The notes beneath the pieces were generated by a model. That model was not told the DNA's origin, did no database searches, and saw nothing but the letters and a program-made list of their open reading frames with translations. Shown piece by piece: positions 7,055-38,419 of a DNA stretch of 45,171 nucleotides. Position numbers and translations under genes: made by a program. Source of the stretch: Escherichia phage TR2; sequence record OP251154.1; one strand, written 5' to 3'. The stretch's first letter is position 1, and each line of letters opens with the position of its first letter.

Positions 7055-7082
7055 AAATAGCCCCATTACGGGGCTTTTTTGT
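7053..7082. terminator. bidirectional rho-independent terminator
   Basis: A-run, GCCCC-attac-GGGGC hairpin, T-run; between convergent genes. Confidence 0.7.
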
Positions 7083-7452
7083 TTTTCCTGAATATTACCA
7101 AAAGCAGAATGATGATGATGCACAACATAATTCCACTTCCAACCCACGGGATTGCAGAAGAATCATTGTTTGTGATTTCAATCTTCTCAGCTGTGATTGT
7201 TGACGCTTTGATTGAGTTATCAGAAGTCTTCTTACCGCTTGAGCTATCAAGAGTGTCAACATTAGAGTTCTTCAACTCAGCCTTTGCATTGGAACTTGAA
7301 TCAACCTTGTTTGTCAGACCTACGCCAACCTTATTGTTCTCCGCTCCAGCCTGGGCGCTAATCTCTGGCTTACTGCCAATCAATCCGGTCAGTGCTGATG
7401 TTGCCGAACAACCAGAAAGAAGAATTGCCGCAGCAATTAATACAGTCTTCAT
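7066..7452 (-). CDS. unimolecular spanin (T1 gp11-like)
   Basis: N-terminal lipoprotein signal with lipobox LSGC plus C-terminal transmembrane helix (IMLCIIIILLLVIF); sits downstream of the endolysin. Confidence 0.6.
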   Translation of the reverse strand: MKTVLIAAAILLSGCSATSALTGLIGSKPEISAQAGAENNKVGVGLTNKVDSSSNAKAELKNSNVDTLDSSSGKKTSDNSIKASTITAEKIEITNNDSSAIPWVGSGIMLCIIIILLLVIFRKNKKAP

Positions 7453-7934
7453 TTACCAACCCCGCTTAAGCACAATTTAATCTCCTCGTTACGCCTGTTT
7501 ACGAGACCCTTGACTACCTTCAGCTTGCCATTTATTCGAGCCTTGTTCCACATCCCGAGAGCCTTGCAACCCTGCTCAACTTTACCCTGGTTAATCAGCC
7601 GTACAGCCGTTGACTTCCTCATTGCAGAACCGCCAACGTTATAACTAAAGCTGATTAACGCCGCCCTTGTTTCTGGTGAAATTGGATAGGTAACTGCATC
7701 CTGCACATACTTACCATGAATCTTAATGTGCCTCTCCAGCAAGTTACGGCACTCCCTTGCGCTGTATACTTTACCAACAATAACATCTGGGCCAGTCACA
7801 CCAGAACAAACCGTAGGTATGCCAGCAATATCCATATATGGCCTGTACTCTACACCCTCAACAAGCTCAATAACCGGCGCTGCGATGTATATTGCCGCTG
7901 CCGTCGCTGCACTAATTATCAGCCTTTGCTTCAT
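7449..7934 (-). CDS. SAR endolysin (lysozyme-like)
   Basis: N-terminal signal-anchor MKQRLIISAATAAAIYIAAP followed by a lysozyme-like domain; position within the lysis cassette. Confidence 0.7.
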   Translation of the reverse strand: MKQRLIISAATAAAIYIAAPVIELVEGVEYRPYMDIAGIPTVCSGVTGPDVIVGKVYSARECRNLLERHIKIHGKYVQDAVTYPISPETRAALISFSYNVGGSAMRKSTAVRLINQGKVEQGCKALGMWNKARINGKLKVVKGLVNRRNEEIKLCLSGVGK

Positions 7935-8152
7935 TACTTACTCCTTATCTTGATTGCTGTTTTTAAGTCTCCTGATTCAAGTGCTCGTCGAATCGCCTGG
8001 CTATCCTTAAACTTCCAGTAAGACCCCCATAACCCAAAAACGATAAGAGCTACAAGGCTGATTATTGCGACTGTGATTTGACCAGTTGCGGCGCCAGTTA
8101 CAGCAGCCCCGCCAGTTGATGCCGTGGCGGCGTTAAGTACTTCCCTCATGTG
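7934..8152 (-). CDS. putative holin (72 aa)
   Basis: Start set at internal Met (MREVLN...) with AAAGGTGA SD; one TM helix plus charged C-terminus; overlaps endolysin start. Confidence 0.5.
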   Translation of the reverse strand, partial: HMREVLNAATASTGGAAVTGAATGQITVAIISLVALIVFGLWGSYWKFKDSQAIRRALESGDLKTAIKIRSK

Positions 8153-8222
8153 ATCACCTTTAAATCCTAATTTGTCAATAGATAGTGTAAATATAATACA
8201 GTAGGCCAGTTCGGATTGTAAG

Positions 8223-8250
8223 CACAAAAAAGGGGAGCCAAAAGGCCCCC
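8223..8250 (-). terminator. rho-independent terminator (minus strand)
   Basis: Minus-strand read GGGGGGCC-tttt-GGCTCCCC followed by T7. Confidence 0.55.
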
Positions 8251-8482: not shown

Positions 8483-8525
8483 ATTATACCTAATTGCTGT
8501 GGCGATTGTTTAGCGATTCGTGCTA
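8483..8525 (-). promoter_or_regulatory. operator/-10 promoter cassette
   Basis: Gene-orientation TAGCAcgaatCGCTA (plus 8511-8525), 22-nt spacer, TATAAT (plus 8483-8488); operator encodes NSTNR-stop of upstream kinase. Confidence 0.55.
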
Positions 8526-9064
8526 TTTATTGCATCAATCACTTTTTCTGTAGTTATTTTAATATCACCTTCAATAACATCAATATCAATTTCCCTTGCG
8601 CAGAGGCCGCTAATGTATGACCTACTATCTCCTTCGAAAGTGTAACCAGGTCTATGAAGCCTAACCAATGTAACCTCAACACCACTTTCAATTAGTGGCT
8701 CAATTTCACTTGCAAATCCACCATCTGAACAGATGTGGCAACCATTGCCAAGAGACTGAGCTAGCCTTTTACCGAAAACTTCATCACCAAAAACTGGCTT
8801 CATCACTGATTCGCTAATCCAAATCATAAATTGACGAACAGTCATTCCACCAAGAAATTCATGTGGTGATTCTTTGTACTCTCGATCATCGTAATTCTTA
8901 ATAAATCCATCAAACTCATCGCTTGATAGCATGCTCTTAGCCACATTAAACATAGGTGATTTGAAAGAAACCTTATCCCTGCAAATTCCAAGTTTAACAA
9001 TGATATCTGCAACTGTATCTTTTCCAGCACCTGGGGGTCCATTAAGGATGATTAACTTTTTCAT
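8510..9064 (-). CDS. deoxynucleoside monophosphate kinase-like P-loop kinase
   Basis: N-terminus MKKLIILNGPPGAGKDT resembles T4 gp1 dNMP kinase; Walker A. Confidence 0.6.
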   Translation of the reverse strand: MKKLIILNGPPGAGKDTVADIIVKLGICRDKVSFKSPMFNVAKSMLSSDEFDGFIKNYDDREYKESPHEFLGGMTVRQFMIWISESVMKPVFGDEVFGKRLAQSLGNGCHICSDGGFASEIEPLIESGVEVTLVRLHRPGYTFEGDSRSYISGLCAREIDIDVIEGDIKITTEKVIDAINSTNR

Positions 9065-9113: not shown

Positions 9114-9662
9114 TTATTTAGAATTCAGATTTTCTACACCATGAGATTTAAGGCCGCTGTGAACATTATAACCATAATCACAAACCTGATAAGTGGTTAT
9201 CCCTAGAGACCTAAAGTGATTTATTACATTCGGGCTATCATCCCAGGCCGCCGTAATTCTTTCAATCCCAATTGAATTTAAGAATTCCTCTTTAATTATC
9301 GTATCCTTCCTGTTGTCCGAAGCTGATCGCATTACCATTACGTTGTATTTGCATCCATTTTTAGTAAGCCAATCAAGTGACTCATCTAGAACATGATCAG
9401 ACCTTCCTGTTAAAATGATTATGTATGCGCCGCTATCATAAATCGAATTCATTACGCTTATCGTATCATTAAATGGAGAATCAAATCTGCTTAGTGAGTT
9501 AAACTCAATCCACGACTCGGTAAGGTGAGGGTCAGTTTTTGGGAGCTTATCAAGTCTGTGAGCCCCGTCAGAAAGCGTTCCGTCATAATCAAAAATATAA
9601 ACTGGCTTACCTTTGAAGTCATTGTTAATTGATTTTTTTATCATTGAATATAGTTGTTTCAT
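9114..9662 (-). CDS. HAD-superfamily phosphatase (nucleotidase or PNK 3'-phosphatase-like)
   Basis: HAD motif I FDYDGTL and downstream ILTGR; co-transcribed with the kinase. Confidence 0.5.
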   Translation of the reverse strand: MKQLYSMIKKSINNDFKGKPVYIFDYDGTLSDGAHRLDKLPKTDPHLTESWIEFNSLSRFDSPFNDTISVMNSIYDSGAYIIILTGRSDHVLDESLDWLTKNGCKYNVMVMRSASDNRKDTIIKEEFLNSIGIERITAAWDDSPNVINHFRSLGITTYQVCDYGYNVHSGLKSHGVENLNSK

Positions 9663-9692: not shown

Positions 9693-9735
9693 AATATACC
9701 CAGATTTCTCTGGGATTTCTTAACAAAAAGTGCTA
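9693..9735 (-). promoter_or_regulatory. operator/-10 promoter cassette
   Basis: Gene-orientation TAGCActttttGTTA (plus 9721-9735), spacer with hairpin CCCAGAgaaaTCTGGG, TATATT (plus 9693-9698). Confidence 0.55.
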
Positions 9736-23185: not shown

Positions 23186-23446
23186 ATGAATAAGTCAGAA
23201 TTTATAGATAAGGTTAAGTTGGCAGGTTTGAAATTCAAAGTTGTTAGCGTTAGAGTCAATAAAGACAGGAACTACGGCCTCGAACAACAGTACTTCTCAC
23301 TTTGGCTGACTGGTTCAAATAGCTGCGACGAATCCTTAACTATGAGTGTTGACTGCATGCCACTACTTTTAAGATTCAAGTCACTGGAAAAGGCAATCAA
23401 TGAGAAGGATAAATATAACAGGTGGTTGAATAGCATTAATTGCTAA
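23186..23446 (+). CDS. hypothetical protein (86 aa)
   Basis: ORF track; C-terminal NSINC-stop encoded by the next operator. Confidence 0.5.
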   Translation: MNKSEFIDKVKLAGLKFKVVSVRVNKDRNYGLEQQYFSLWLTGSNSCDESLTMSVDCMPLLLRFKSLEKAINEKDKYNRWLNSINC

Positions 23447-23473: not shown

Positions 23474-23514
23474 TACTCCATCGAAACGAAATGCACATTC
23501 TAAGGAATAAGAAA

Positions 23515-23757
23515 ATGACTAACTTAATCAAACTTTCAATCATCGCCGCAGCAGCAATCATGATGGTGGGTTGCTCTTCTGGTCCTCGTCCTGACGGTTG
23601 GTGTGCAACGCAAGCAAACGGAGTATGCGTGGCTAAATGGAAAGGTGGAGTGGTTCTACCGGCTGGTGAAGTTGATGTGCGCTACGACGGCATTAAGATG
23701 AATGGTGGCGGTTACAGCGGGTCTGTTGCTGACCACGGCTCTAAGGAGTGGAAATAA
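23515..23757 (+). CDS. small lipoprotein (Cor/Llp-like superinfection-exclusion candidate)
   Basis: Signal peptide with lipobox (IMMVGCSS); ~80 aa; start set at ATG 23515 after AAGGA; overlaps start of next gene. Confidence 0.55.
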
Positions 23758-28207: not shown

Positions 28208-28783
28208 TTATGCAATATCTTGAGCGTAACTGCCGGCGCTAAATACAGAGCCGCCAACGCTTCGGTAGCCATAAGGTAGGCATACTGGATAACCAGCCGC
28301 GACGGTGTTAACCGCAGAGCCAAATGCATATGAAGCCCTGTTTTGTGCGGACTCCTGGTTTCTAAGTCCCGTTGCCTGCGGTGAAAGCAACTGAGCAATA
28401 CCGCCAGCAGCAAGTGAAATGCCAGCACCAAGAACAGCCGTTGCAATACCACCAGTAAAGAAGAAGCTAGCACCAATTAGTGCGGCCCCCAAAACAGTCT
28501 GGAACAGCCCACCACTCTTTCGGCCCTGAGGGATTGGCATGATGCGAATCTCCTTTACGGCCTTAAAGTCTTTAATGCGATGTTCGTTAAGGTTCTTGCC
28601 GTCCGCGAAGATTGCAAACCTGGTATTCTGCCCGACATGGCTCTGCATAAACTCTTTGAATGCTGGAATGTTCACAGATAATGCCCTTAACGCCTCAGGG
28701 ACTGACTCAACGCAAAGTTCATGAATCTTTCCGTACTTCCTGCCAAGAGATAAGCCCAATTTAATTTTAATCAGTCTCTGCAT
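28208..28783 (-). CDS. tail assembly protein (lambda gpI-like)
   Basis: Position after the gpK-like gene; Gly/Ala-rich hydrophobic C-terminus; start set at internal Met with AAGGAG SD. Confidence 0.55.
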   Translation of the reverse strand: MQRLIKIKLGLSLGRKYGKIHELCVESVPEALRALSVNIPAFKEFMQSHVGQNTRFAIFADGKNLNEHRIKDFKAVKEIRIMPIPQGRKSGGLFQTVLGAALIGASFFFTGGIATAVLGAGISLAAGGIAQLLSPQATGLRNQESAQNRASYAFGSAVNTVAAGYPVCLPYGYRSVGGSVFSAGSYAQDIA

Positions 28784-29513
28784 TGTAGTTTGCTCCTTCT
28801 GGTAAATCTTTGTGGCGAACAATGCGAACCGTACGCTCGCGCCAATAATCACTATAGGTATCAACTTTACTCATCTTCCCGTAAAGATGGTGCAAGAATT
28901 TGTTATCGCCAATATAGATTCCTGCGTGATTCGTGGTCTCACTTTGAATCTGCATCATAATCATGGAGCCAACAGGAATATCATCAGTTTCTAGTAGCTC
29001 AAATCCTTCCTTAATCCAATTGTCATCATATATATTTTCACCATACTCCTTGTTCCACCACGGGTAATTAACGCGGTAGTCAGCCAGTTTGACGCCGTGT
29101 TTTGCGTGGAATGCCATAATCAACCCCCAGCAATCAAAGCTACCCAAACCCCACGGCCTTCCTGCTAACGGCATGTCCTCTGGCTCAAGGATTCGCATAT
29201 CACCCTCAGGGTAACTAACAATTACATAAGGAATCTCGCACTCATTGCAACTGCATATATCTGCTGGACTAGGTCTGGTGGTGGCCCCATCCCCAGTGTG
29301 TGAGTGGACAATGTACACAACTCGCTCCTCATCGCTAATCTTCATGTACCCACTGGCATCAAGAATGAATTCATTCTCAGGGTCTTTAGATGTGTTAGTG
29401 ATTCGATGGTACTTCTGAGCCATACCTTTTTGGGTTACTACTCCGCAACATTCATTAGGGTAATCCTCTTTGGCGTGGCGCATGATTTCTAATTTAACTT
29501 TTGGTGTTAGCAT
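28767..29513 (-). CDS. tail tip assembly protein (lambda gpK-like, MPN/JAB plus NlpC/P60)
   Basis: HSHTGDGATTRPSPADICS JAMM-like motif and Cys/His peptidase-like C-terminus; start set at second ATG after ATTGGAG RBS. Confidence 0.7.
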   Translation of the reverse strand: MLTPKVKLEIMRHAKEDYPNECCGVVTQKGMAQKYHRITNTSKDPENEFILDASGYMKISDEERVVYIVHSHTGDGATTRPSPADICSCNECEIPYVIVSYPEGDMRILEPEDMPLAGRPWGLGSFDCWGLIMAFHAKHGVKLADYRVNYPWWNKEYGENIYDDNWIKEGFELLETDDIPVGSMIMMQIQSETTNHAGIYIGDNKFLHHLYGKMSKVDTYSDYWRERTVRIVRHKDLPEGANYNAETD

Positions 29514-29551
29514 TTTGTCTCCAATAAAAAAGGCCAATCTCTCGATTGACC
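29514..29551 (-). terminator. hairpin plus T6 fused to RBS (GGCC-T6-ATTGGAG) before the gpK-like gene
   Basis: Minus-strand read GGTCAATCgagaGATTGGCC, TTTTTT, ATTGGAGACAAA, ATG. Confidence 0.45.
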
Positions 29552-29577: not shown

Positions 29578-29787
29578 TTAATCGATATGAGTAAAAATAC
29601 AATCATGGTCCGCAATTAAGCTTAGCATTGATGACTCAGGAAGGTATTCAAGGTGTAGCTTTGTTCCCATGTCATCTTTTATGAATAATTCTGACTCATC
29701 TCCATCGAGATTTAAAGTGTAGATATCACCAATAGTCAAATTCCAGTATTCGCTAGATCTTACGCATTCAATAAATTTACTTTTCAT
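29578..29787 (-). CDS. hypothetical protein (69 aa) inserted between gpL-like and gpK-like genes
   Basis: ORF track; own promoter cassette upstream. Confidence 0.4.
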   Translation of the reverse strand: MKSKFIECVRSSEYWNLTIGDIYTLNLDGDESELFIKDDMGTKLHLEYLPESSMLSLIADHDCIFTHID

Positions 29788-29817: not shown

Positions 29818-29859
29818 TATATACCATCCCTGGCAGTTTGTATTTATCAAAAAATGCTA
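29818..29859 (-). promoter_or_regulatory. operator/-10 promoter cassette
   Basis: Plus 29845-29859 TATCAaaaaaTGCTA, 21-nt spacer, TATATA (plus 29818-29823), leader CACAAACGA. Confidence 0.5.
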
Positions 29860-30615
29860 TTAGTTCTGATTATTCTTAGCTTGTAAACTTGCGGAGGCAC
29901 ACCCCCCAAATGATAGCTGGTTGTTTTCACCAAACCTCAACTTACAGGCATCAACAGTTCCGGCGCAAAAATCTAACCCAGGGTCATCAACCGGATTATT
30001 GTCTTTGTCGAAGTAGCGATTCCCAGCATAATCGCAACCGTTGCCACTGCGATACCATCCACGAGAAGCAAAGTAACATACTGACTGGACTAGCCTCGCT
30101 GGAATATAGATACCATCCATATCAATTGGGCTAGATAACTCAAAAGAGGCAGTCTTGTAGTCAACCTGCTTTGGACGCTCAATAAAGTAAACCATCTTAC
30201 GATAATCGCCATCTGCAATGCTGCCATCATCATTGATATTATCCCTGATAGTAACCCAGATTGTTACCTTCGCCTGAACCATGCCATTGTACTGACGGAT
30301 TAGCGAGGAAACAGCCTGGTCAACGTTTGATAAAGTTAGCGTGAGCTTGTTTGCTTTTCCATCAGATGTAAGGTTGATGCCGCTAATGCCGAAAGGTCTG
30401 GCTCCATACTCTTCGCCACGAAATGTAATTGTCTTGGCTGGTAGTGGCTGACCAGATGCCTGGGCTTGCATGATTTCTTCAGGCGTGTATGAGATATTCT
30501 CCCCATGAAACCTGTAAACCCTTGCGCCGAACTTGCTGCCATCAACCTCAATAAGCGTAACCACTTCACCAGGGAAAAGTGATTGAAGTTGGTTTTCAAA
30601 CTTTACACTTGCCAT
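29860..30615 (-). CDS. minor tail protein (lambda gpL-like)
   Basis: Synteny TMP-M-L-K-I-J; size close to gpL; C-terminal Cys cluster. Confidence 0.65.
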   Translation of the reverse strand: MASVKFENQLQSLFPGEVVTLIEVDGSKFGARVYRFHGENISYTPEEIMQAQASGQPLPAKTITFRGEEYGARPFGISGINLTSDGKANKLTLTLSNVDQAVSSLIRQYNGMVQAKVTIWVTIRDNINDDGSIADGDYRKMVYFIERPKQVDYKTASFELSSPIDMDGIYIPARLVQSVCYFASRGWYRSGNGCDYAGNRYFDKDNNPVDDPGLDFCAGTVDACKLRFGENNQLSFGGCASASLQAKNNQN

Positions 30616-31035: not shown

Positions 31036-34008
31036 TTAATTATAACCTCGCAAGAAAGCAAAGGCCCTGCCACCCTGCTGGAATGACTTGCTGATTTCCT
31101 CAGCCACGATAACCTTGACTCCAGATTCTATCGCCTTAGCATCATTACCGCCACCGATTCCAGAATTCACGTTAACAGTGATTCCGCTTACATTAACATT
31201 TGTACCGCCAACAACTCCACCATTAGCATAGCCAGAAGGCCCACCAACAGCGCCACCATTGGCATAACCTCGCATCAGCTTGTACAGGTTCTTAACGCCA
31301 ATCCTGTTGGTTGCTTCTTTGGTGAAAACAAATTCACCTTTGTGCACCGTTCCAGCAGGTTGATACTTCCCACCGTCACCAGTGTAGCCGCCGCCAGCAA
31401 ATCCAAGCGCACTACCAATTGAACCAATTGCGCCGCCAGTGCCACCAAAGCTACTCAAACTTGACTCAATAGCCTTAACAATCAGAAGCTGTGTCGCAAT
31501 CTTCGCAATCATTTTGAGGATGCTTACCGTGAACTCCCTGAAATTAGTCTCACCAGTGGTTACAAGGTTTGTAATCTGGTCGGTAATTCCATCAAAAGCT
31601 GCGACAGTCAAATCCTTAGCAATTTGGTTGAAGTCAGTGTACTTCTCAGTTAAGTCAGCAAGCGTTGAAGTTACACCAGCTTGCCAGTCTGACCTTAGGT
31701 TATCTTCCTGCCTGTAGTATTCTTTTCTTGCTTCCAGCAGATTCTGGAAATCAACATCATCTACAGATCCACCTTTGTTTAACTGATTGGACTCTAGCGC
31801 CTGAAGTTCTCTTGCCCTTTGCCGCTCCCTTTCGGATAGACCAGCAGCAAGTGAAACATTCTTCGCCTCATTGGTAATCTGTATTGTCTTCTTAAGGTTG
31901 TCATCAAGTAACTTGTTTGACCGCTCCTGAAGAACGATTCGGTCACCAAGTTCAGCCTTCTGTTTAGCTTGCTCAAGAATGATATCCTTCTGCGCTAGCA
32001 GTTTGGCTTGAGACTTAGTCAGGCTACCATCAGCATATCTTTGTTCAAGTATTGCAAACTTAGCTTCTTCCTGGAATAGCTGCTTTCGTTCGTTACTTAT
32101 TACATCATTTATCGTCCTATGCTCTTGCAAAGCCTTTAACTGAGCCTGAAGTGCAAGAACACCAGATTCATAAGATAAAGTTAAATCCATTTCTTCTTTT
32201 ACTGCCTTATTCCTCTCGCTCCTCGATTTCTTTATTGCATCAAGCTCGTCTGCTAGCGCTTTCTTCCTTGCTCCGAACTCCTTATCTGTTGATGCATTAT
32301 TCCCGCTCAGGTTAGTGTTATTGTTGCTCTCGACATAACCAAGTTCACCCTTCCTGATTCTCGCGTCTCGCTCAGCTATGCTTTTAGCTAACTCAATGTT
32401 TTGCTTCTTGGCAGCATCGACAATCTTTTGCTGCTCAGCGATTGCTTCATTGCCTAAATCGCCAAGTCCCGGGATTGACTGAAGCGTCTTGGTTGCAGCG
32501 ATAGCAAATTCACCAAGAAGAATGTCGCCTGAGTTTATGAACGACCTTATCTGCTCAATCGTCCCAGCAACAACGTCAGTTATTAAGTTAAGAGCACCAA
32601 GTGTCCTTTTGCCGATATCATCCCAAATATTACTTACAAACTTCCTGAAGCTATTCCATGCACTTTCTAGCGGATTGAGGCTTAGTGCAACATCTTCTAG
32701 CCTGTTTTCCATAACGTTAGCAAATAACTCAGTAGCTGCTGTTACAGCCTCAGTCTCTCCCGCTGTCTTCCTTAAGTTCTCTATGTGTTTTAACTGCCCA
32801 CTTTGAAGGAAGTTAAATTGCTTATCAAGCTCAGCAAGGCCTTTAACAGGGTCTTTTGTAATTTGGTCAAAGTACCCGAGAATGGTCTTTGAATCGGTTG
32901 ATGTTACTGCCGCCCACTGCGCTGTTGCCTTAGTTATCTTGTCTATCTGCGTAAGAGTTAGGTTTCCGTTTGCCACAAGGCTATTGGCTATTTCCTGAAT
33001 AAGTCCGCGAGTAGCTAGTGTTGATCTCTCAATTCCATCAACAACCTGATTTATCTGCGCTGTAGACGTGATAGTTGAGTTGCCAACCAACGTTATCGTA
33101 GATGCTAGTCCTCGAGCATTCTTATCGGCCTGATAAGCCGCAACACCCAAAGCGCCAAGAGCCAGGCCTAGAGTCCCAACAACTGCTGTTAATGGGTTAA
33201 TGGCTGCCAGTGCAAACCTTGCTGTATTTCCAATACCGCCAAAACTATCCTTAATCTGCCCACCCTGTTGGATTGCAACAAGCCAGACTGGCATGCCGCT
33301 AGCAAGGGAAGTTCCGATATCTGTAATCTGAGCGGGTAGCTGGCGAATCGCTTGCTTGTACTGACCGGCGCTTAAACCTGACTTAAGAAAAGCGGAACTC
33401 TGCTTCTGCAACTGAATAGCAGATGCCTCGGCAGCCTTACCAATCCTGTCGATAATAGGCGCAGCTTGGTCACTAACCCCTAGCTGAGCAGCCTTAAGCT
33501 GAAGCAGTTCAGTCCTTGTAAGGCTTGCTGCATTCGCCTCGTTCTCAAGAGATTGAATGAACTTTTGCGCCGCTGCTGTTGCCTTTTCTTTGTCTATTGA
33601 TGCCTGGAGTGCAGCCCGACCTTCCTCGCTAAGAGCAGCTTTAGACCTGTTGAGCTTATTGATTTGAGTTTCAATAACAGAGCCAAGCCTGAAGAATTCT
33701 TCATCAGGAACTATCCCAGATTCAAATGCTTTGTCTAATTCAGTTGCTGCCTTCTGCAACTTCTGGAATTTAGCGGCAGTTGGGTCTATGGCTTTCTGAA
33801 GTGATGCGAAAGATTTGCGCTGTTCCTCAAGCTGCCTTGCAGTGTCCCTTGCTTGAGTCTTGGCTACAAGCTCGGCGTTGATGAAGCTATTGATTCCCGT
33901 TGCAGCTTGCTCGTTTGCTTGCCTGAATTTCTGTAATGATTGCGTACCCTTATCGACCTGAGCGACGTCGACGGCTAGCGTGATACCAGCAATTTCGTTA
34001 GTTGCCAT
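31036..34008 (-). CDS. tail tape measure protein
   Basis: 990 aa, long coiled-coil segments and Gly-rich C-terminus; follows chaperones, precedes gpM-like gene. Confidence 0.85.
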   Translation of the reverse strand: MATNEIAGITLAVDVAQVDKGTQSLQKFRQANEQAATGINSFINAELVAKTQARDTARQLEEQRKSFASLQKAIDPTAAKFQKLQKAATELDKAFESGIVPDEEFFRLGSVIETQINKLNRSKAALSEEGRAALQASIDKEKATAAAQKFIQSLENEANAASLTRTELLQLKAAQLGVSDQAAPIIDRIGKAAEASAIQLQKQSSAFLKSGLSAGQYKQAIRQLPAQITDIGTSLASGMPVWLVAIQQGGQIKDSFGGIGNTARFALAAINPLTAVVGTLGLALGALGVAAYQADKNARGLASTITLVGNSTITSTAQINQVVDGIERSTLATRGLIQEIANSLVANGNLTLTQIDKITKATAQWAAVTSTDSKTILGYFDQITKDPVKGLAELDKQFNFLQSGQLKHIENLRKTAGETEAVTAATELFANVMENRLEDVALSLNPLESAWNSFRKFVSNIWDDIGKRTLGALNLITDVVAGTIEQIRSFINSGDILLGEFAIAATKTLQSIPGLGDLGNEAIAEQQKIVDAAKKQNIELAKSIAERDARIRKGELGYVESNNNTNLSGNNASTDKEFGARKKALADELDAIKKSRSERNKAVKEEMDLTLSYESGVLALQAQLKALQEHRTINDVISNERKQLFQEEAKFAILEQRYADGSLTKSQAKLLAQKDIILEQAKQKAELGDRIVLQERSNKLLDDNLKKTIQITNEAKNVSLAAGLSERERQRARELQALESNQLNKGGSVDDVDFQNLLEARKEYYRQEDNLRSDWQAGVTSTLADLTEKYTDFNQIAKDLTVAAFDGITDQITNLVTTGETNFREFTVSILKMIAKIATQLLIVKAIESSLSSFGGTGGAIGSIGSALGFAGGGYTGDGGKYQPAGTVHKGEFVFTKEATNRIGVKNLYKLMRGYANGGAVGGPSGYANGGVVGGTNVNVSGITVNVNSGIGGGNDAKAIESGVKVIVAEEISKSFQQGGRAFAFLRGYN

Positions 34009-34045
34009 ATTGTCTCCATAATAAAAAAGCCACCCCGAAGGATGG
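34009..34045 (-). terminator. hairpin (UUCG loop) plus T6 fused to RBS before the tape measure gene
   Basis: Minus-strand read AGCCATCC-ttcg-GGGTGGCT, TTTTTT, ATTATGGAGACAAT, ATG. Confidence 0.55.
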
Positions 34046-34297
34046 CTATTTCTTGGCGTTCATCATATCTAAGGCTTTAGCCTCAAGTATTCTGATATCG
34101 TTAAGTACCATTTCTTCATCATCTATTTTATAGACTTTGAACAAGAATGGAAGGCAATTATAATCAAGGCCTGTGGCACCGCAAGCACCTACTCGCCATT
34201 GTGTCGACATAGCACAGTACACATCCCAGCTTTGCATCATTGTTTCATCGAAGTGTAACTCTTCAGGCTCCTCACCTTCATAATCGGAACGTTTCAT
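34046..34297 (-). CDS. putative tail assembly chaperone (gpT-like position)
   Basis: Acidic 83-aa protein directly upstream of the tape measure gene. Confidence 0.4.
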   Translation of the reverse strand: MKRSDYEGEEPEELHFDETMMQSWDVYCAMSTQWRVGACGATGLDYNCLPFLFKVYKIDDEEMVLNDIRILEAKALDMMNAKK

Positions 34298-34359
34298 TCC
34301 GATAGCTTCGAGTTCGGCATCCGTTGGCGGTGACTGGTATTGTAAGTATACTGCGCGTT

Positions 34360-34674
34360 TTAGTTTTTTACTCGCTGCCCTGCAAGTGCTTTCATGTAGC
34401 TATCCATTAGCGATGGAACTGCACCAGGGAAAAGGTTTGCAAACTCATCGACGTTCTCATCGTTAAATGGTTCTTCTAAATCCCAGTCAGAGCAGATTTC
34501 GCTAATCAATTCCTTAGTGCTGAAGTTTTCACGATTAAGAATCTCCTGTAACTCAGATGATTTCTTGTGCTTAACTGTTAAGACTACTTCTGCGTCCTCT
34601 CCATTCGCAAGCTGAAACTTAACTGGAAGTTTAAAGTCAGGAAGCGCCTTAAGTGAAAGTTTGAATTTTGCCAT
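34360..34674 (-). CDS. putative tail assembly chaperone (gpG-like position)
   Basis: Acidic 104-aa protein between the major tail region and the tape measure gene. Confidence 0.4.
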   Translation of the reverse strand: MAKFKLSLKALPDFKLPVKFQLANGEDAEVVLTVKHKKSSELQEILNRENFSTKELISEICSDWDLEEPFNDENVDEFANLFPGAVPSLMDSYMKALAGQRVKN

Positions 34675-34709
34675 CTCGTTATCTCCTTTGTTTATGTTGA
34701 ATGATTATA

Positions 34710-34958
34710 TTACTTTGATTCGTTTTTTACAATGTTGTGAGCAACTTCGGTGCACACTTCGCGACCATAGTGCAGAATCTGGTTTGTCTTATCGCCAGCT
34801 ACTTTTTCACAATGCGAATATGCACTATTAAATTCATGTTCATACTTTATTGCATCAGAGTTTGCGGTTGCGCCACCAGTTGGGTTGACAATCTGAATTG
34901 CCAGGTAGAAAGCACCAAGAGCAGCAGTAAGTTTGATGATATTTTTAACGTTGTTCAT
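34710..34958 (-). CDS. small secreted protein with signal peptide (82 aa)
   Basis: N-terminal hydrophobic signal-like segment IIKLTAALGAFYLAIQIV; co-transcribed with membrane peptide from its own promoter. Confidence 0.45.
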   Translation of the reverse strand: MNNVKNIIKLTAALGAFYLAIQIVNPTGGATANSDAIKYEHEFNSAYSHCEKVAGDKTNQILHYGREVCTEVAHNIVKNESK

Positions 34959-34976
34959 TTTGTTTTCTCTCTCGTT

Positions 34977-35117
34977 TTAGCGATTACGCAGCGCTATCAC
35001 AATTAAAGCAAGCACAGCAGATACGAAGTAAGTGCCTATGGCTGCACCTAATGATACCCAAAAGGTTAGACCTGTAGCATAATAGAAAAAAGCGGTCAGC
35101 ATACCAATTAAAATCAT
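34977..35117 (-). CDS. small hydrophobic membrane protein (46 aa)
   Basis: Start set at internal Met MILIGMLTAFFYY...; two hydrophobic helices. Confidence 0.4.
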   Translation of the reverse strand: MILIGMLTAFFYYATGLTFWVSLGAAIGTYFVSAVLALIVIALRNR

Positions 35118-35156
35118 TTTGCTTACCTCTATAATCCATCTCGTTTCGATAAAGTA

Positions 35157-35199
35157 ATAATAGCAAATCCCTGCCACACGTCTTTAACAAAAAGTGCTA
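35157..35199 (-). promoter_or_regulatory. operator/-10 promoter cassette inside the tail module
   Basis: Plus 35185-35199 TAACAaaaagTGCTA, 22-nt spacer, TATTAT (plus 35157-35162), leader ATCGAAACGAG. Confidence 0.55.
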
Positions 35200-35203
35200 T
35201 CAA

Positions 35204-35225
35204 TAAAAAACCCTCCGAAGAGGGT
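35204..35225 (-). terminator. rho-independent terminator after the major tail gene
   Basis: Minus-strand read CCCTC-ttcg-GAGGG followed by T6. Confidence 0.6.
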
Positions 35226-35230
35226 TAATT

Positions 35231-35890
35231 TTATACTAGCTCAGAAGCCACAGAACTCAGCCTACCACGGATGGATACCGCGATGGATACCGTTTCGATT
35301 TCGTTAACACCAATGCTCGGGGTGTCGTTGAAAGAGATAGTGCCAGACTGAAGTCGCATCTCACTAGCGCGAGGCACGAACAGACGGATAGCAACAACCT
35401 GACCAGACTCATCATAGTTACGCAGAATCGGATATACCGGGTTGGTGTATTCGTGCGCGAACGTGTAGGTGTTAGTTACCGCAGACTTATAGGTTGGAAT
35501 CTTTTGCTCGCGGTCATCAGATAAACACTGGAAGTTAACGAACTGCTGTTCGCCGCCGTCAGTGGATACATCCTGAACACAAGGAACTTCAAACCAGCTA
35601 AGAATCTTAACTACTTCACCAGTTAAACCGGCTGGAAACTTAGTGTTGTTGGAGGTATCAATACCTTCAACAGTTACGTCCGAACCAGATACCGCAGTGA
35701 CACGAACTTGCTTATCAGCCAGAAGTGTTGAAGCTGAGCTGGTGAACAGCAGGTAATCCCCGCGCGCAATACCTGTGGCGTCGGACAAAGTTAAAACAGG
35801 AGCAACAGCATTGGTAATTGCTGTTACGTCGATAGTATTACCCCTAGTGCCCTCTACGAAGACCTGGGTGCCATTGCTGAGATGGGCCAT
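35231..35890 (-). CDS. putative major tail protein
   Basis: 219 aa, position between head-tail joining genes and chaperones; followed by strong terminator. Confidence 0.5.
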   Translation of the reverse strand: MAHLSNGTQVFVEGTRGNTIDVTAITNAVAPVLTLSDATGIARGDYLLFTSSASTLLADKQVRVTAVSGSDVTVEGIDTSNNTKFPAGLTGEVVKILSWFEVPCVQDVSTDGGEQQFVNFQCLSDDREQKIPTYKSAVTNTYTFAHEYTNPVYPILRNYDESGQVVAIRLFVPRASEMRLQSGTISFNDTPSIGVNEIETVSIAVSIRGRLSSVASELV

Positions 35891-35901
35891 ATATTTTCCT
35901 T

Positions 35902-36300
35902 TTAGTCAAGACGAACATAGAAACGAACTGGAATAAACCAGCCAGATTTTGACTTCACTACCGGGTGAACTACTCCGCCCTCATAAATGTAGCCTGTGTC
36001 AAGCATTGTACCATCAAGCATTGATTCTGCCAATTGATTCGCCAACCTCCTTGCGCTATCAACACCATCACCTGGTGAGAAAAATACAGAGACCTGAACC
36101 ATGCCGACATAGTATTTGCACTTGCGACTCAAGCTATAGGTTACGGTATCGGCCTCAGTGTAGTCGTACTTCAGCCACATACCGCCATTACTTGGAGGAG
36201 AGAATGCTACGTTTTCGTAGGAGATTGGATACCTGACTGGAAACGTTTTAACCAAATCAGTCACAAACCTCCTTGATGCTAAAGATAGCTCATACTGCAT
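35902..36300 (-). CDS. putative tail terminator / tail completion protein
   Basis: Position and size only. Confidence 0.4.
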   Translation of the reverse strand: MQYELSLASRRFVTDLVKTFPVRYPISYENVAFSPPSNGGMWLKYDYTEADTVTYSLSRKCKYYVGMVQVSVFFSPGDGVDSARRLANQLAESMLDGTMLDTGYIYEGGVVHPVVKSKSGWFIPVRFYVRLD

Positions 36301-37810: not shown

Positions 37811-38419
37811 TTATAGCACTAAACAATCGCCTTCGTGAACCCCATTGGCGTTTCCGTACTCGCCGAATATTTCTTTACACCAACTGTCGTAACACTCCTT
37901 AGCCTCTTCAATTGTGTCAAACCTTTTAGCCATCCTTACATCTCCGCAATCCTTTTGTATCTGGGCTTTCCACTTCACCCTTGATTTATCGTAGCTAACA
38001 CCTTTAAATCCACTCTTGTTCCTTTTGTATAGGCTCGTATTCATCATGTTCTCACTTCGAGTAACAACCCTTAGGTTTTCCACCCTATTGTTTAATGAGT
38101 TACCATCAATGTGATCTATCTCACCTGTCGGCCAACTCCTGTGATGATAAAACCACTTTAACTTATGCATTGAAACGTGAAACTTCTTCCCGGAAACTTT
38201 AATACATAGCTTCCACATCTTACTTTCTGGGCATGTTGGGTTTGGAGTGAATTCACCTCCAGCAACCTTTCCGGCGTACCTTGAATTCCATACATTTGTA
38301 AACCTATCATTTCCCGGCTTTACTTTCCATGTCATAACGGGACTTTCAGAATCTGATTCAAGTCTTGATGTTAGCTCTTCGTGAGTTAGTAGTTCTTCAA
38401 TTTTCATTTTCGCCTCCAT
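37811..38419 (-). CDS. HNH homing endonuclease with AP2 domain
   Basis: IDHIDGNSLNNRVENLRVV plus AP2-like KSGFKGVSY...W.A.I. Confidence 0.8.
   Translation of the reverse strand: MEAKMKIEELLTHEELTSRLESDSESPVMTWKVKPGNDRFTNVWNSRYAGKVAGGEFTPNPTCPESKMWKLCIKVSGKKFHVSMHKLKWFYHHRSWPTGEIDHIDGNSLNNRVENLRVVTRSENMMNTSLYKRNKSGFKGVSYDKSRVKWKAQIQKDCGDVRMAKRFDTIEEAKECYDSWCKEIFGEYGNANGVHEGDCLVL

Follow-up and report, generated by a model that had tools for sequence, protein, structure and literature searches.

The analysis described here concerns a short stretch of the tail gene region of Escherichia phage TR2 (sequence record OP251154.1), namely positions 34,710 to 35,199 of a window of 45,171 nucleotides (nt), the window being the whole stretch of DNA that was analysed. 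The stretch holds two small genes, p46 and p82, encoding 46 and 82 amino acids (aa), which are located between the gene for the major tail protein and the genes for the tail assembly chaperones. The window region was found to be 100% identical to Escherichia phage TR3 (PP069512; Drexlerviridae, Braunvirinae), whose name is used for the window sequence in the following, and phages Rao1 and CY1 are 99.7–99.8% identical to it. All genes of the locus are encoded on the minus strand and, from high to low coordinates, are arranged in the order major tail gene, terminator, promoter-type cassette, p46, p82, chaperone genes G and T, terminator, and tape measure gene. A sequence-only reading had placed a 46-aa and an 82-aa frame between the major tail gene and the chaperones, and both were confirmed on this strand, at 35117..34977 and 34958..34710. 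The end coordinate of that reading, 35199, corresponds to the first base of the dyad TAGCACTTTTTGTTA within the cassette. The central elements are the following:

35157..35200, minus strand: promoter-type cassette with the dyad TAGCAC-TTTT-TGTTA (35199..35185), a -35-like AAGACG, a 22-nt interval, and a -10-like TATTAT (35162..35157)
35118..35156, minus strand: 5' leader of p46 with the conserved box TTATCGAAACGAGATG (35152..35137) and the Shine-Dalgarno sequence GAGG (35129..35126)
34977..35117, minus strand: p46, 46 aa, with two hydrophobic helices (approximately residues 1–21 and 25–43), a C-terminal RNR, and a match to phrog_16572 (E 1.2e-4)
34710..34958, minus strand: p82, 82 aa, with an N-terminal signal peptide or anchor and a predicted helical hairpin, matching phrog_22925 (E 2.4e-28)

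Occupants of the slot between major tail and chaperone genes

Comparison with related phages showed that the gap between the terminator of the major tail gene and the chaperone genes serves in Braunvirinae as a cargo slot behind a phage-wide promoter-type cassette, and that in TR3 this slot carries two accessory genes, the products of which are predicted to go to the cell envelope. Homologs of p82 were identified in 81 phage records, with amino acid identities of 51–100%, and in every p82 locus that was examined (CY1, ES, IMM-001, phiA2-1, EC3a, 26174I, BEK6, JeanPiccard, five further IMG/VR isolate copies, and two metagenomic contigs), the gene was found in this very slot, directly flanked by the major tail and chaperone genes. 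Phages T1 (Tunavirinae), AHS24 (Rogunavirinae), vojen (Tempevirinae), and KL (Webervirus) revealed no gene at this position, but a terminator and a gap of roughly 75–115 nt. In Rtp, AugustePiccard, RobRod40, and MM01, the slot is occupied by the gene for the 128-aa lipoprotein rtp34, and in TR1 by one for a 126-aa lipoprotein (TR1 gp126) sharing 31% identity with rtp34, each with a lipobox (LAGC or LTGC). Profile comparison by hhalign yielded a probability of 0.2%, so that a remote homology of p82 to these lipoproteins was rejected. All three alternative slot occupants carry either a signal peptide or a lipobox. Based on its absence from four other Drexlerviridae lineages and its replacement by unrelated lipoproteins, p82 is therefore accessory and no part of the tail; together with the predicted export signal, this excludes a core role in tail assembly and fits an optional envelope cargo. 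The second gene, p46, is missing from ES, IMM-001, and AN_ECEAS, which have p82. The proposal of the sequence-only reading that the pair is accessory and non-structural was thus borne out by the relatives.

In regard to its sequence, the N-terminus of p82 (residues 1–32) displays the layout of a Sec export signal, with a positively charged n-region (MNNVKNIIK, two lysines), a hydrophobic h-region of 15 residues (LTAALGAFYLAIQIV, residues 10–24), and a polar c-region (NPTGGATA) with small residues at positions -3 and -1 of a cleavage-type site between ATA and N. No cysteine occurs before residue 50, hence there is no lipobox. The AlphaFold2 model consists of a helix at residues 2–24 and a hairpin of two helices at residues 30–54 and 57–81, with a mean predicted local distance difference test score (pLDDT) of 68 that reaches 75–82 in the hairpin. 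Cys50 and Cys69 are invariant in the family alignment, and the modelled periplasmic two-helix hairpin is probably stapled by a disulphide. The first 28 residues are almost invariant although their codons carry synonymous changes, and the 54 C-terminal codons are nearly saturated between clades, with a nucleotide identity of about 52%. Pairwise ratios of non-synonymous to synonymous substitution rates (dN/dS) were 0–0.31 for the whole gene and 0.05–0.29 for the C-terminal domain, compared to 0.01–0.07 for the chaperone and 0.04–0.10 for the major tail protein. Since it is kept at full length in 81 records at such ratios, p82 is a real protein under purifying selection. Judging from these alignments, the predicted exposed domain is comparatively free to change and evolves faster than the neighbouring genes; the membrane segment is unusually constrained, as would suit an anchor better than a signal that is cleaved off. 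As far as can be read from its distribution, p82 is an old orphan protein of the presumed envelope type, which represents the majority state in Braunvirinae and the standard occupant of the slot, and no recent insertion.

The product of p46 contains neither acidic residues nor cysteines, and consequently no lipobox, and did not reveal any Pfam match at E <= 0.1. Its match to phrog_16572 (E 1.2e-4; E 2.1e-4 for a copy in phage phiA2-1) covers residues 1–39 of 46. BLASTP analysis resulted in 39% identity over 46 residues to ORF5 of Cedecea phage Yanou, which for its part is 79% identical to gene 0.5 of phage T7 and matches phrog_16572 at 6.6e-26. p46 is thus taken as a distant relative of T7 gene 0.5, a membership that is provisional given the weak match. 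Frame, start codon, and Shine-Dalgarno sequence of p46 are kept in four phages at two genomic sites, and a hand count on the alignment with the phiA2-1 copy yielded about seven synonymous and five non-synonymous codon differences; the gene is not annotated in the records of CY1 and Rao1. A role of p46 as holin, spanin, or other lysis protein was considered and rejected, as no holin or spanin PHROG or Pfam match was found and the lysis cassette of TR3 is located elsewhere (~8227..7066). Both products look envelope-targeted, p46 as a hydrophobic peptide and p82 as a signal-peptide protein, in agreement with the description given by the sequence-only reading.

The promoter-type cassette and its predicted transcription unit

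The 19-nt core ATAGCACTTTTTGTTAAAG of the cassette occurs nine times in the window at <=3 mismatches (0.05 expected), and 16 sites match the dyad TAGCA-N5-TGNTA, compared to 0.52 expected, so that the cassette is a real repeated element. The dyad follows the consensus TAGCA-N5-TG(C/T/A)TA, in which the arms are conserved and the spacer is variable (CTTTT, CGAAT, CTAAT, TTAAT). At 14 of the 16 sites, read in one orientation, an A-rich flank and TAGCAC-N4-TTGNTA are followed by an AAGACA-like hexamer, which is weak, and by a -10 hexamer of good quality (TATTAT, TATAGT, TATGAT, or CATAAT), which lies 22 nt after the dyad (21–23 nt across the copies). In most copies, a leader box like CATCGAAACGA (AAACGA-type) is found after the -10 hexamer, followed by a start codon on the same strand. 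The centre of the dyad lies at about -42 relative to the -10 hexamer, which suggests that a dimeric factor binds here, in a position like that of an activator, and the cassette looks like the main promoter class of the phage, its promoter activity being deduced from this layout. Neither the dyad motif nor p82, rtp34, or the slot was found to be described in the literature searched. The dyads and the features adjoining the two genes are located as follows:

1151, 2037, 3656, 4466, 9721, 12061, 14552, 15060, 16622, 19353, 19907, 22305, 23431, 29845, 35185, and 44635: start positions of the 15-nt dyads
35231..35890, minus strand: gene for the major tail (tube) protein, 219 aa (PF08813, E 7.7e-67; phrog_584, E 1.6e-85), upstream edge of the slot
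35203..35226, minus strand: intrinsic terminator 3' of the major tail gene with a 7-bp stem, a UUCG loop, and a T6 run (terminator scan)
34704..34732, minus strand: sigma-70-like promoter (TTGTAA, 17 nt, TATAAT; 10 of 12 matches in the promoter scan) inside the last p82 codons, facing the chaperone gene
34360..34674, minus strand: tail assembly chaperone G, 104 aa (PF08748, E 1.3e-32; phrog_569), downstream edge of the slot
34046..34297, minus strand: T part of the chaperone (DUF1799), 83 aa (PF08809, E 3.8e-14; phrog_17368)
34028..34047, minus strand: intrinsic terminator closing the unit just ahead of the tape measure gene (terminator scan; -15.5 kcal/mol, z -4.1)
31036..34008, minus strand: tape measure protein, 990 aa, with a central segment at approximately residues 288–615 (window 33147..32164) delimited by identity tables and sliding windows

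The strong terminator that the sequence-only reading had seen at the end of the major tail gene was recovered as a hairpin with the sequence AACCCTC-TTCG-GAGGGTT and a T-run at 35226..35209 (-17.7 kcal/mol, z -4.5 vs shuffles), and its sequence is invariant across the six phages aligned over the slot region (TR3, CY1, ES, IMM-001, TR1, and Rtp). Upstream of p46, in an intergenic region of 113 nt, a consensus scan of the minus strand from 35118 to 35208 revealed no canonical sigma-70 promoter, and TTGTTA and TATTAT are 22 nt and not 17 nt apart. The canonical promoter of the earlier description therefore stands as a repeated promoter-type element, with nine core copies and 16 dyads, but not as a canonical sigma-70 promoter. 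Terminator and cassette are conserved base for base at the slot in CY1, ES, IMM-001, TR1, and Rtp, with or without p46, and the terminator scan detected no terminator-like site between p82 and the chaperone gene, the next one being that after gene T (34047..34028). The cassette is therefore not private to p46 and p82, and the suggestion that it drives the pair alone, unlike the flanking structural genes, had to be abandoned. The predicted transcription unit comprises the promoter, p46, p82, G and T, and the terminator. Terminators are also annotated at the equivalent place before the tape measure gene in T1, AHS24, and EC3a. A promoter at the place equivalent to 34732..34704 is annotated in the record of EC3a, and its sequence is conserved in CY1, ES, and IMM-001 but absent in Rtp.

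Several observations on the neighbourhood may be added. The gap between the major tail and chaperone genes of T1 (L010, about 1765–1790) and vojen (L013, about 1770–1795) contains the motif in reverse (CTTTTAACAAAAAGTGCTAT), pointing at the major tail gene and adjoining the ribosome-binding site of the chaperone gene, and a degenerate copy of the dyad is present near 8525 in TR3. The chaperone frames G and T are 62 nt apart (window 34297–34360) and are given as two genes in the records ('TfmS'), while T1 is annotated with a G/GT frameshift product. The major tail protein of TR3 shares 88–91% identity with those of Rtp, TR1, Bas01, and Bas02. An Rfam scan of positions 33900–36000 yielded nothing credible (GibS at 27 bits vs a threshold of 115). 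Among complete E. coli genomes, 5,426 of which were searched, none matched the region at the DNA level, so that this set contains neither a prophage nor a host copy of it.

Measured by the classical description of morons in the sense of Juhala and Hendrix (as described in PMC3594210), p46 and p82 are only half a moron. They are extra genes where relatives have none, and a repeated promoter-type cassette lies directly upstream of them; however, this cassette is conserved in the aligned relatives and would serve the chaperone genes as well, a terminator of their own is lacking, and their GC content of 0.40 is unremarkable in comparison to the chaperone genes (0.41) and the whole window (0.436, standard deviation 0.04). 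The view of the sequence-only reading that the two genes are inserted as a pair likewise applies to p46 only, which at the slot was found in TR3, Rao1, and CY1 alone, and not to p82 as the majority state of the subfamily.

The second site of p46 gave hints on how it may have arrived. In phiA2-1, its homolog is located three genes upstream of the holin gene, with two unrelated small genes in between. The DNA homology of TR3 and phiA2-1 begins exactly at the promoter dyad, continues through the -10 hexamer, the leader, and p46, and ends after ATGAACAACGTTAAA. These 15 closing bases correspond to codons 1–5 of p82 (MNNVK), which do not vary in p82 and in phiA2-1 are fused to a phrog_4788 gene, the paralogue of which starts with MTKLYC; the resulting phiA2-1 GP46 (L007, 2483–2840) appears to be chimeric, with five codons from an internal ATG (MNNVK) in front of a phrog_4788 body, and looks like a recombination scar. 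In the simplest reading of these boundaries, we infer that another promoter copy received the p46 cassette from the tail slot by copying, with one crossover in the promoter and one at the start of the next gene. p46 is apparently a recent addition to the slot, placed by recombination between promoter copies. With its homology bounded by the dyad and by the start of the next gene, the promoter copies would thus act as landing pads for cargo.

Further variable genes were seen in connection with the repeated cassette. The phiA2-1 copy of p46 belongs to a second variable cargo region between the dyad promoter at 9721–9735 and the holin gene (window 9114–9662 and 8510–9064, minus strand; compared to L007 2483–3031), in which phiA2-1 harbors p46 and two small phrog_4788 genes; TR3 appears, as read from the sequence, to carry two genes there, one phosphatase-like and the other resembling P-loop kinases. 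Within the tail module, a second orphan gene equipped with a promoter (window 29578–29787, minus strand, dyad 29845–29859) encodes a 69-aa acidic protein with no PHROG match and no evident hydrophobic segment, and is located between a gpL-like (30615..29860) and a gpK-like (29537..28767) minor tail gene. In phage BEK12A (Tempevirinae; L014 1441–1875), a distant relative of rtp34 with 26% identity was identified in the replication module, just upstream of a Dam methylase gene, so that the lipoprotein family is mobile cargo too. Finally, the TR3 record lists an HNH endonuclease for a 202-aa ORF between the major capsid region and the head-tail connector genes (window 37811–38419, minus strand), which probably stems from the insertion of a homing endonuclease gene.

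Tape measure types and known exclusion systems

Within Braunvirinae, the type of slot occupant coincides with the type of tape measure protein. The five phages with a lipoprotein in the slot are exactly the five with an Rtp-type tape measure of 920–922 aa, and all p82 loci examined, including the two metagenomic contigs, revealed a tape measure of 990–992 aa with a TR3-type central domain. The two classes differ in the central segment (approximately residues 288–615 in TR3), which starts just past a hydrophobic stretch, and no similarity was detectable between the central segments of TR3 and of TR1 and Rtp. The chaperones and the N-terminus of the tape measure, which lie between the cargo and the central segment, follow the backbone of the phage: identities of chaperones G and T amount to 99% and 96% for TR3 vs TR1 and to 98% and 92% for Bas01 (AugustePiccard) vs Bas02 (JeanPiccard). 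The same mosaic is visible in the table of the paper on TR1 (PMC10450929). Across Drexlerviridae, two non-homologous central domains of about 330 and 220 aa were seen (window 32164–33147 and L019 1330–1992), swapped by recombination independently of their N- and C-terminal flanks and each present in several subfamilies.

Among proteins of known function, gp15 of phage HK97 is similar in its setting. Its gene is located between the chaperone and tape measure genes and encodes a YebO-like inner-membrane protein that blocks injection; morphogenesis proceeds without it, close relatives lack it, and its exclusion is a post-adsorption effect that is dependent on the incoming phage's tail tube and tape measure (PMC3594210, PMC10883804). 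Like gp15, p82 is small, predicted to be membrane-targeted, and encoded in the tail operon near the chaperone and tape measure genes. Unlike it, p82 and p46 show no sequence relation to this protein (no Pfam match at E <= 0.1, the YebO family included), the slot lies upstream of the chaperone genes and not between chaperone and tape measure, and the phage is virulent, so that there is no expression from a prophage. Moreover, p46 and p82 lack a terminator that would set them off from the chaperone genes, are predicted to depend on the same promoter as these, and do not deviate in GC content; the role of p82 is put forward by analogy.

The occupation of the slot by membrane or secreted p82 or by a lipoprotein of the rtp34 family also resembles the small envelope-anchored injection blockers directed against siphophages, namely Ltp of phage TP-J34 and proteins of the lactococcal Sie2009 type; Ltp is a lipoprotein the identified target of which, as cited in PMC10883804, is the tape measure protein. 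These proteins stem from temperate phages of Gram-positive hosts and their genomic positions differ from that of p82. Profile searches against PDB sequences with the p82 and rtp34 families returned nothing, thus no homology to Ltp or Sie2009-type proteins was detected. Envelope-exported exclusion proteins are known from virulent or T1-like coliphages as well. Cor (T1, phi80, N15) and Llp (T5) are lipoproteins that mask the outer-membrane receptor and are encoded beside the receptor-binding gene (PMC8594841, PMC13164509). p82 and p46 resemble them in being predicted to be envelope-targeted; unlike them, both lack a lipobox, and p82 is located about 10 kb from gpJ and the receptor-binding region, in phages with different receptors. 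At the Cor/Llp position, TR3 encodes another small lipoprotein (window 23491–23757, plus strand; lipobox MVGC from an internal Met), which has its own dyad promoter (23431–23445) and overlaps the start of a 321-aa gene adjoining gpJ.

For p46, the comparison leads to gp0.5 of T7, the uncharacterised and putatively membrane-associated product of a class I early gene that lies behind promoter B, a minor E. coli promoter (PMC12798971, PMC11863960). Both proteins are of similar size (46 vs 47 aa) and share two hydrophobic segments, the motifs IG-LTA and FW-S-G-A-G-YF, and a basic C-terminus. In contrast to this early gene, p46 is located in the tail operon (TR3) or upstream of lysis genes (phiA2-1), and the similarity is weak. 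Altogether, the slot varies a known theme, that of morons or exclusion genes in tail operons, with new protein families as its building blocks and virulent phages as its carriers.

Possible function of p82 and p46

The function that we favour for p82, by analogy to these systems and at a probability of roughly 0.35, is superinfection exclusion at the injection step. After arrival of p46 at the slot by recombination between copies of the cassette, p46 and p82 would be transcribed from the cassette together with the chaperone genes up to the terminator before the tape measure gene. During infection, p82 would be exported to the inner membrane or periplasm, where it could block the entry of secondary siphophages after adsorption by interfering with tape-measure-driven conduit formation or DNA injection. 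The rtp34-type lipoproteins would be its functional analogues in Rtp-type phages, and p46 might act separately on a target in the inner membrane, as a host-modulating peptide of the early-gene type. Occurrence of p82 is independent of the outer-membrane receptor, as p82 is found in IME253 (FepA) and JeanPiccard (LptD), and AugustePiccard (LptD) carries the lipoprotein. A more specific version is doubtful, namely that the slot of virulent T1-like phages holds an exchangeable immunity gene matched to the phage's own tape-measure central domain, with p82 as one type and the rtp34-type lipoproteins as the other.

Several points weigh against exclusion by p82. Neither experimental nor homology evidence for any function of the pair was found. 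Relatives of p82 outside Braunvirinae were not detected, as a word-indexed search among 5.8 billion proteins gave eight clusters, all of the family itself, and an exhaustive HMMER profile search of 1.84 billion representatives gave a single match, again the p82 family. There was likewise no match in Pfam (E <= 0.1), NCBIfam, PADLOC, or PDB sequences, and a fold search of the AlphaFold2 model against BFVD and PDB yielded none at E <= 0.001, but generic helical hairpins only. The conservation of the N-terminus is unusual for a cleaved signal peptide, so that the topology of p82 is uncertain. Known exclusion genes of virulent phages are typically early genes, and p82 is placed in a unit with late tail chaperones. 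Both types of central domain are common in cargo-free Drexlerviridae, the TR3 type occurring in T1, AHS24, and KL and the Rtp type in vojen, and BEK12A combines its distant rtp34-like lipoprotein in the replication module with a TR3-type tape measure. In TR1, the lipoprotein is only 31% identical to rtp34 though the tape-measure centres (TR1 vs Rtp and Bas01) are 95–97% identical. The lipoprotein class moreover comprises just five phages, perhaps of two lineages, so that physical linkage could explain the pattern; an enlargement of this class was attempted, but IMG/VR gave only Rtp, and two metagenome scans and one protein search gave nothing. In view of the cargo-free phages, BEK12A, and the divergence in TR1, the association between cargo and tape measure is therefore weak, suggestive only, and restricted to Braunvirinae. 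A family-wide pairing of rtp34-like lipoproteins with Rtp-type centres was rejected on account of the TR3-type centre in BEK12A.

Nearly as likely as exclusion is a differently directed envelope function, in which the two proteins would be accessory factors that counter a membrane-associated host defence, affect lysis timing or membrane energetics, or change the envelope in a way that spares progeny from loss on debris, the position merely offering a convenient promoter. That cargo follows the promoter copies would fit, as seen from the phiA2-1 p46 cassette behind another copy, from the promoter-equipped orphan gene 29787..29578 between two minor tail genes, and from the distant rtp34-like lipoprotein in the BEK12A replication module; the nearest relative of p46, T7 gp0.5, is an uncharacterised early gene directed at the host (PMC12798971, PMC11863960), and the association with the tape measure fails outside Braunvirinae. 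Yet no match to a known anti-defence or defence family was found, neither p46 nor p82 matched a holin or spanin family and the lysis cassette of TR3 at ~8227..7066 is complete, and the joint switch of cargo and tape measure across a conserved chaperone block in two backbones would be left unexplained. The superinfection-exclusion or anti-defence roles named by the sequence-only reading hence both stay inferences from circumstantial evidence, and nothing came up that would refute them.

It is improbable that p82, or the lipoprotein replacing it, is instead a helper of the phage's own tape measure or tail, as a cofactor of assembly or injection that fits the central domain. Its gene is part of the predicted transcription unit of the tape-measure chaperones, the cargo class tracks the central-domain class within Braunvirinae, and p82 is conserved in 81 records; but tail assembly is cytoplasmic, yet all three cargo types bear export signals, and T1, AHS24, KL, and vojen, with homologous central domains of either type, assemble tails without a gene at the slot. 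Furthermore, a protein made after infection cannot aid the entry of its own genome unless it is packaged, which is unlikely for an exported protein. Even less probable, to a degree that makes it hardly credible, is the view that one or both frames are mis-called or non-functional filler between two transcription signals. Both are tiny, p46 lacks annotation in CY1 and Rao1, and neither has an informative database match, but p82 is full-length in all 81 records with a dN/dS of 0–0.31 and two invariant cysteines, and p46 keeps frame, start, and Shine-Dalgarno sequence in four phages at two sites, shows more synonymous than non-synonymous changes, and matches the profile of T7 gp0.5 along its full length.

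T1-like phages are classic contaminants of E. coli fermentations, from which TR1, TR3, CY1, DTL, and Rtp were isolated, and they also serve as therapy and model phages. To our knowledge, only very few examples of exclusion below the outer-membrane receptor exist in Gram-negative bacteria (HK97 gp15, P22 SieA, T4 Imm). A conserved yet optional putative envelope protein encoded in the tail operon is a cheap and directly testable candidate for exclusion between phages, which would take effect at this level. If p82 or the lipoproteins block entry in a tape-measure-specific manner, they would help to find out how the tape measures of siphophages pass through the periplasm, and could be expressed in production strains as a receptor-independent protection. 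If immunity matched to the tape measure proves true, p82 would be the founding member of a new family of injection blockers in the periplasm or inner membrane, and the two-state polymorphism would point to the central domain of the tape measure as that part of the conduit which is open to attack in the periplasm. Whatever the function, the locus illustrates how small cargo genes of a virulent phage can settle behind a repeated promoter-type cassette, which would act as a portable landing pad.

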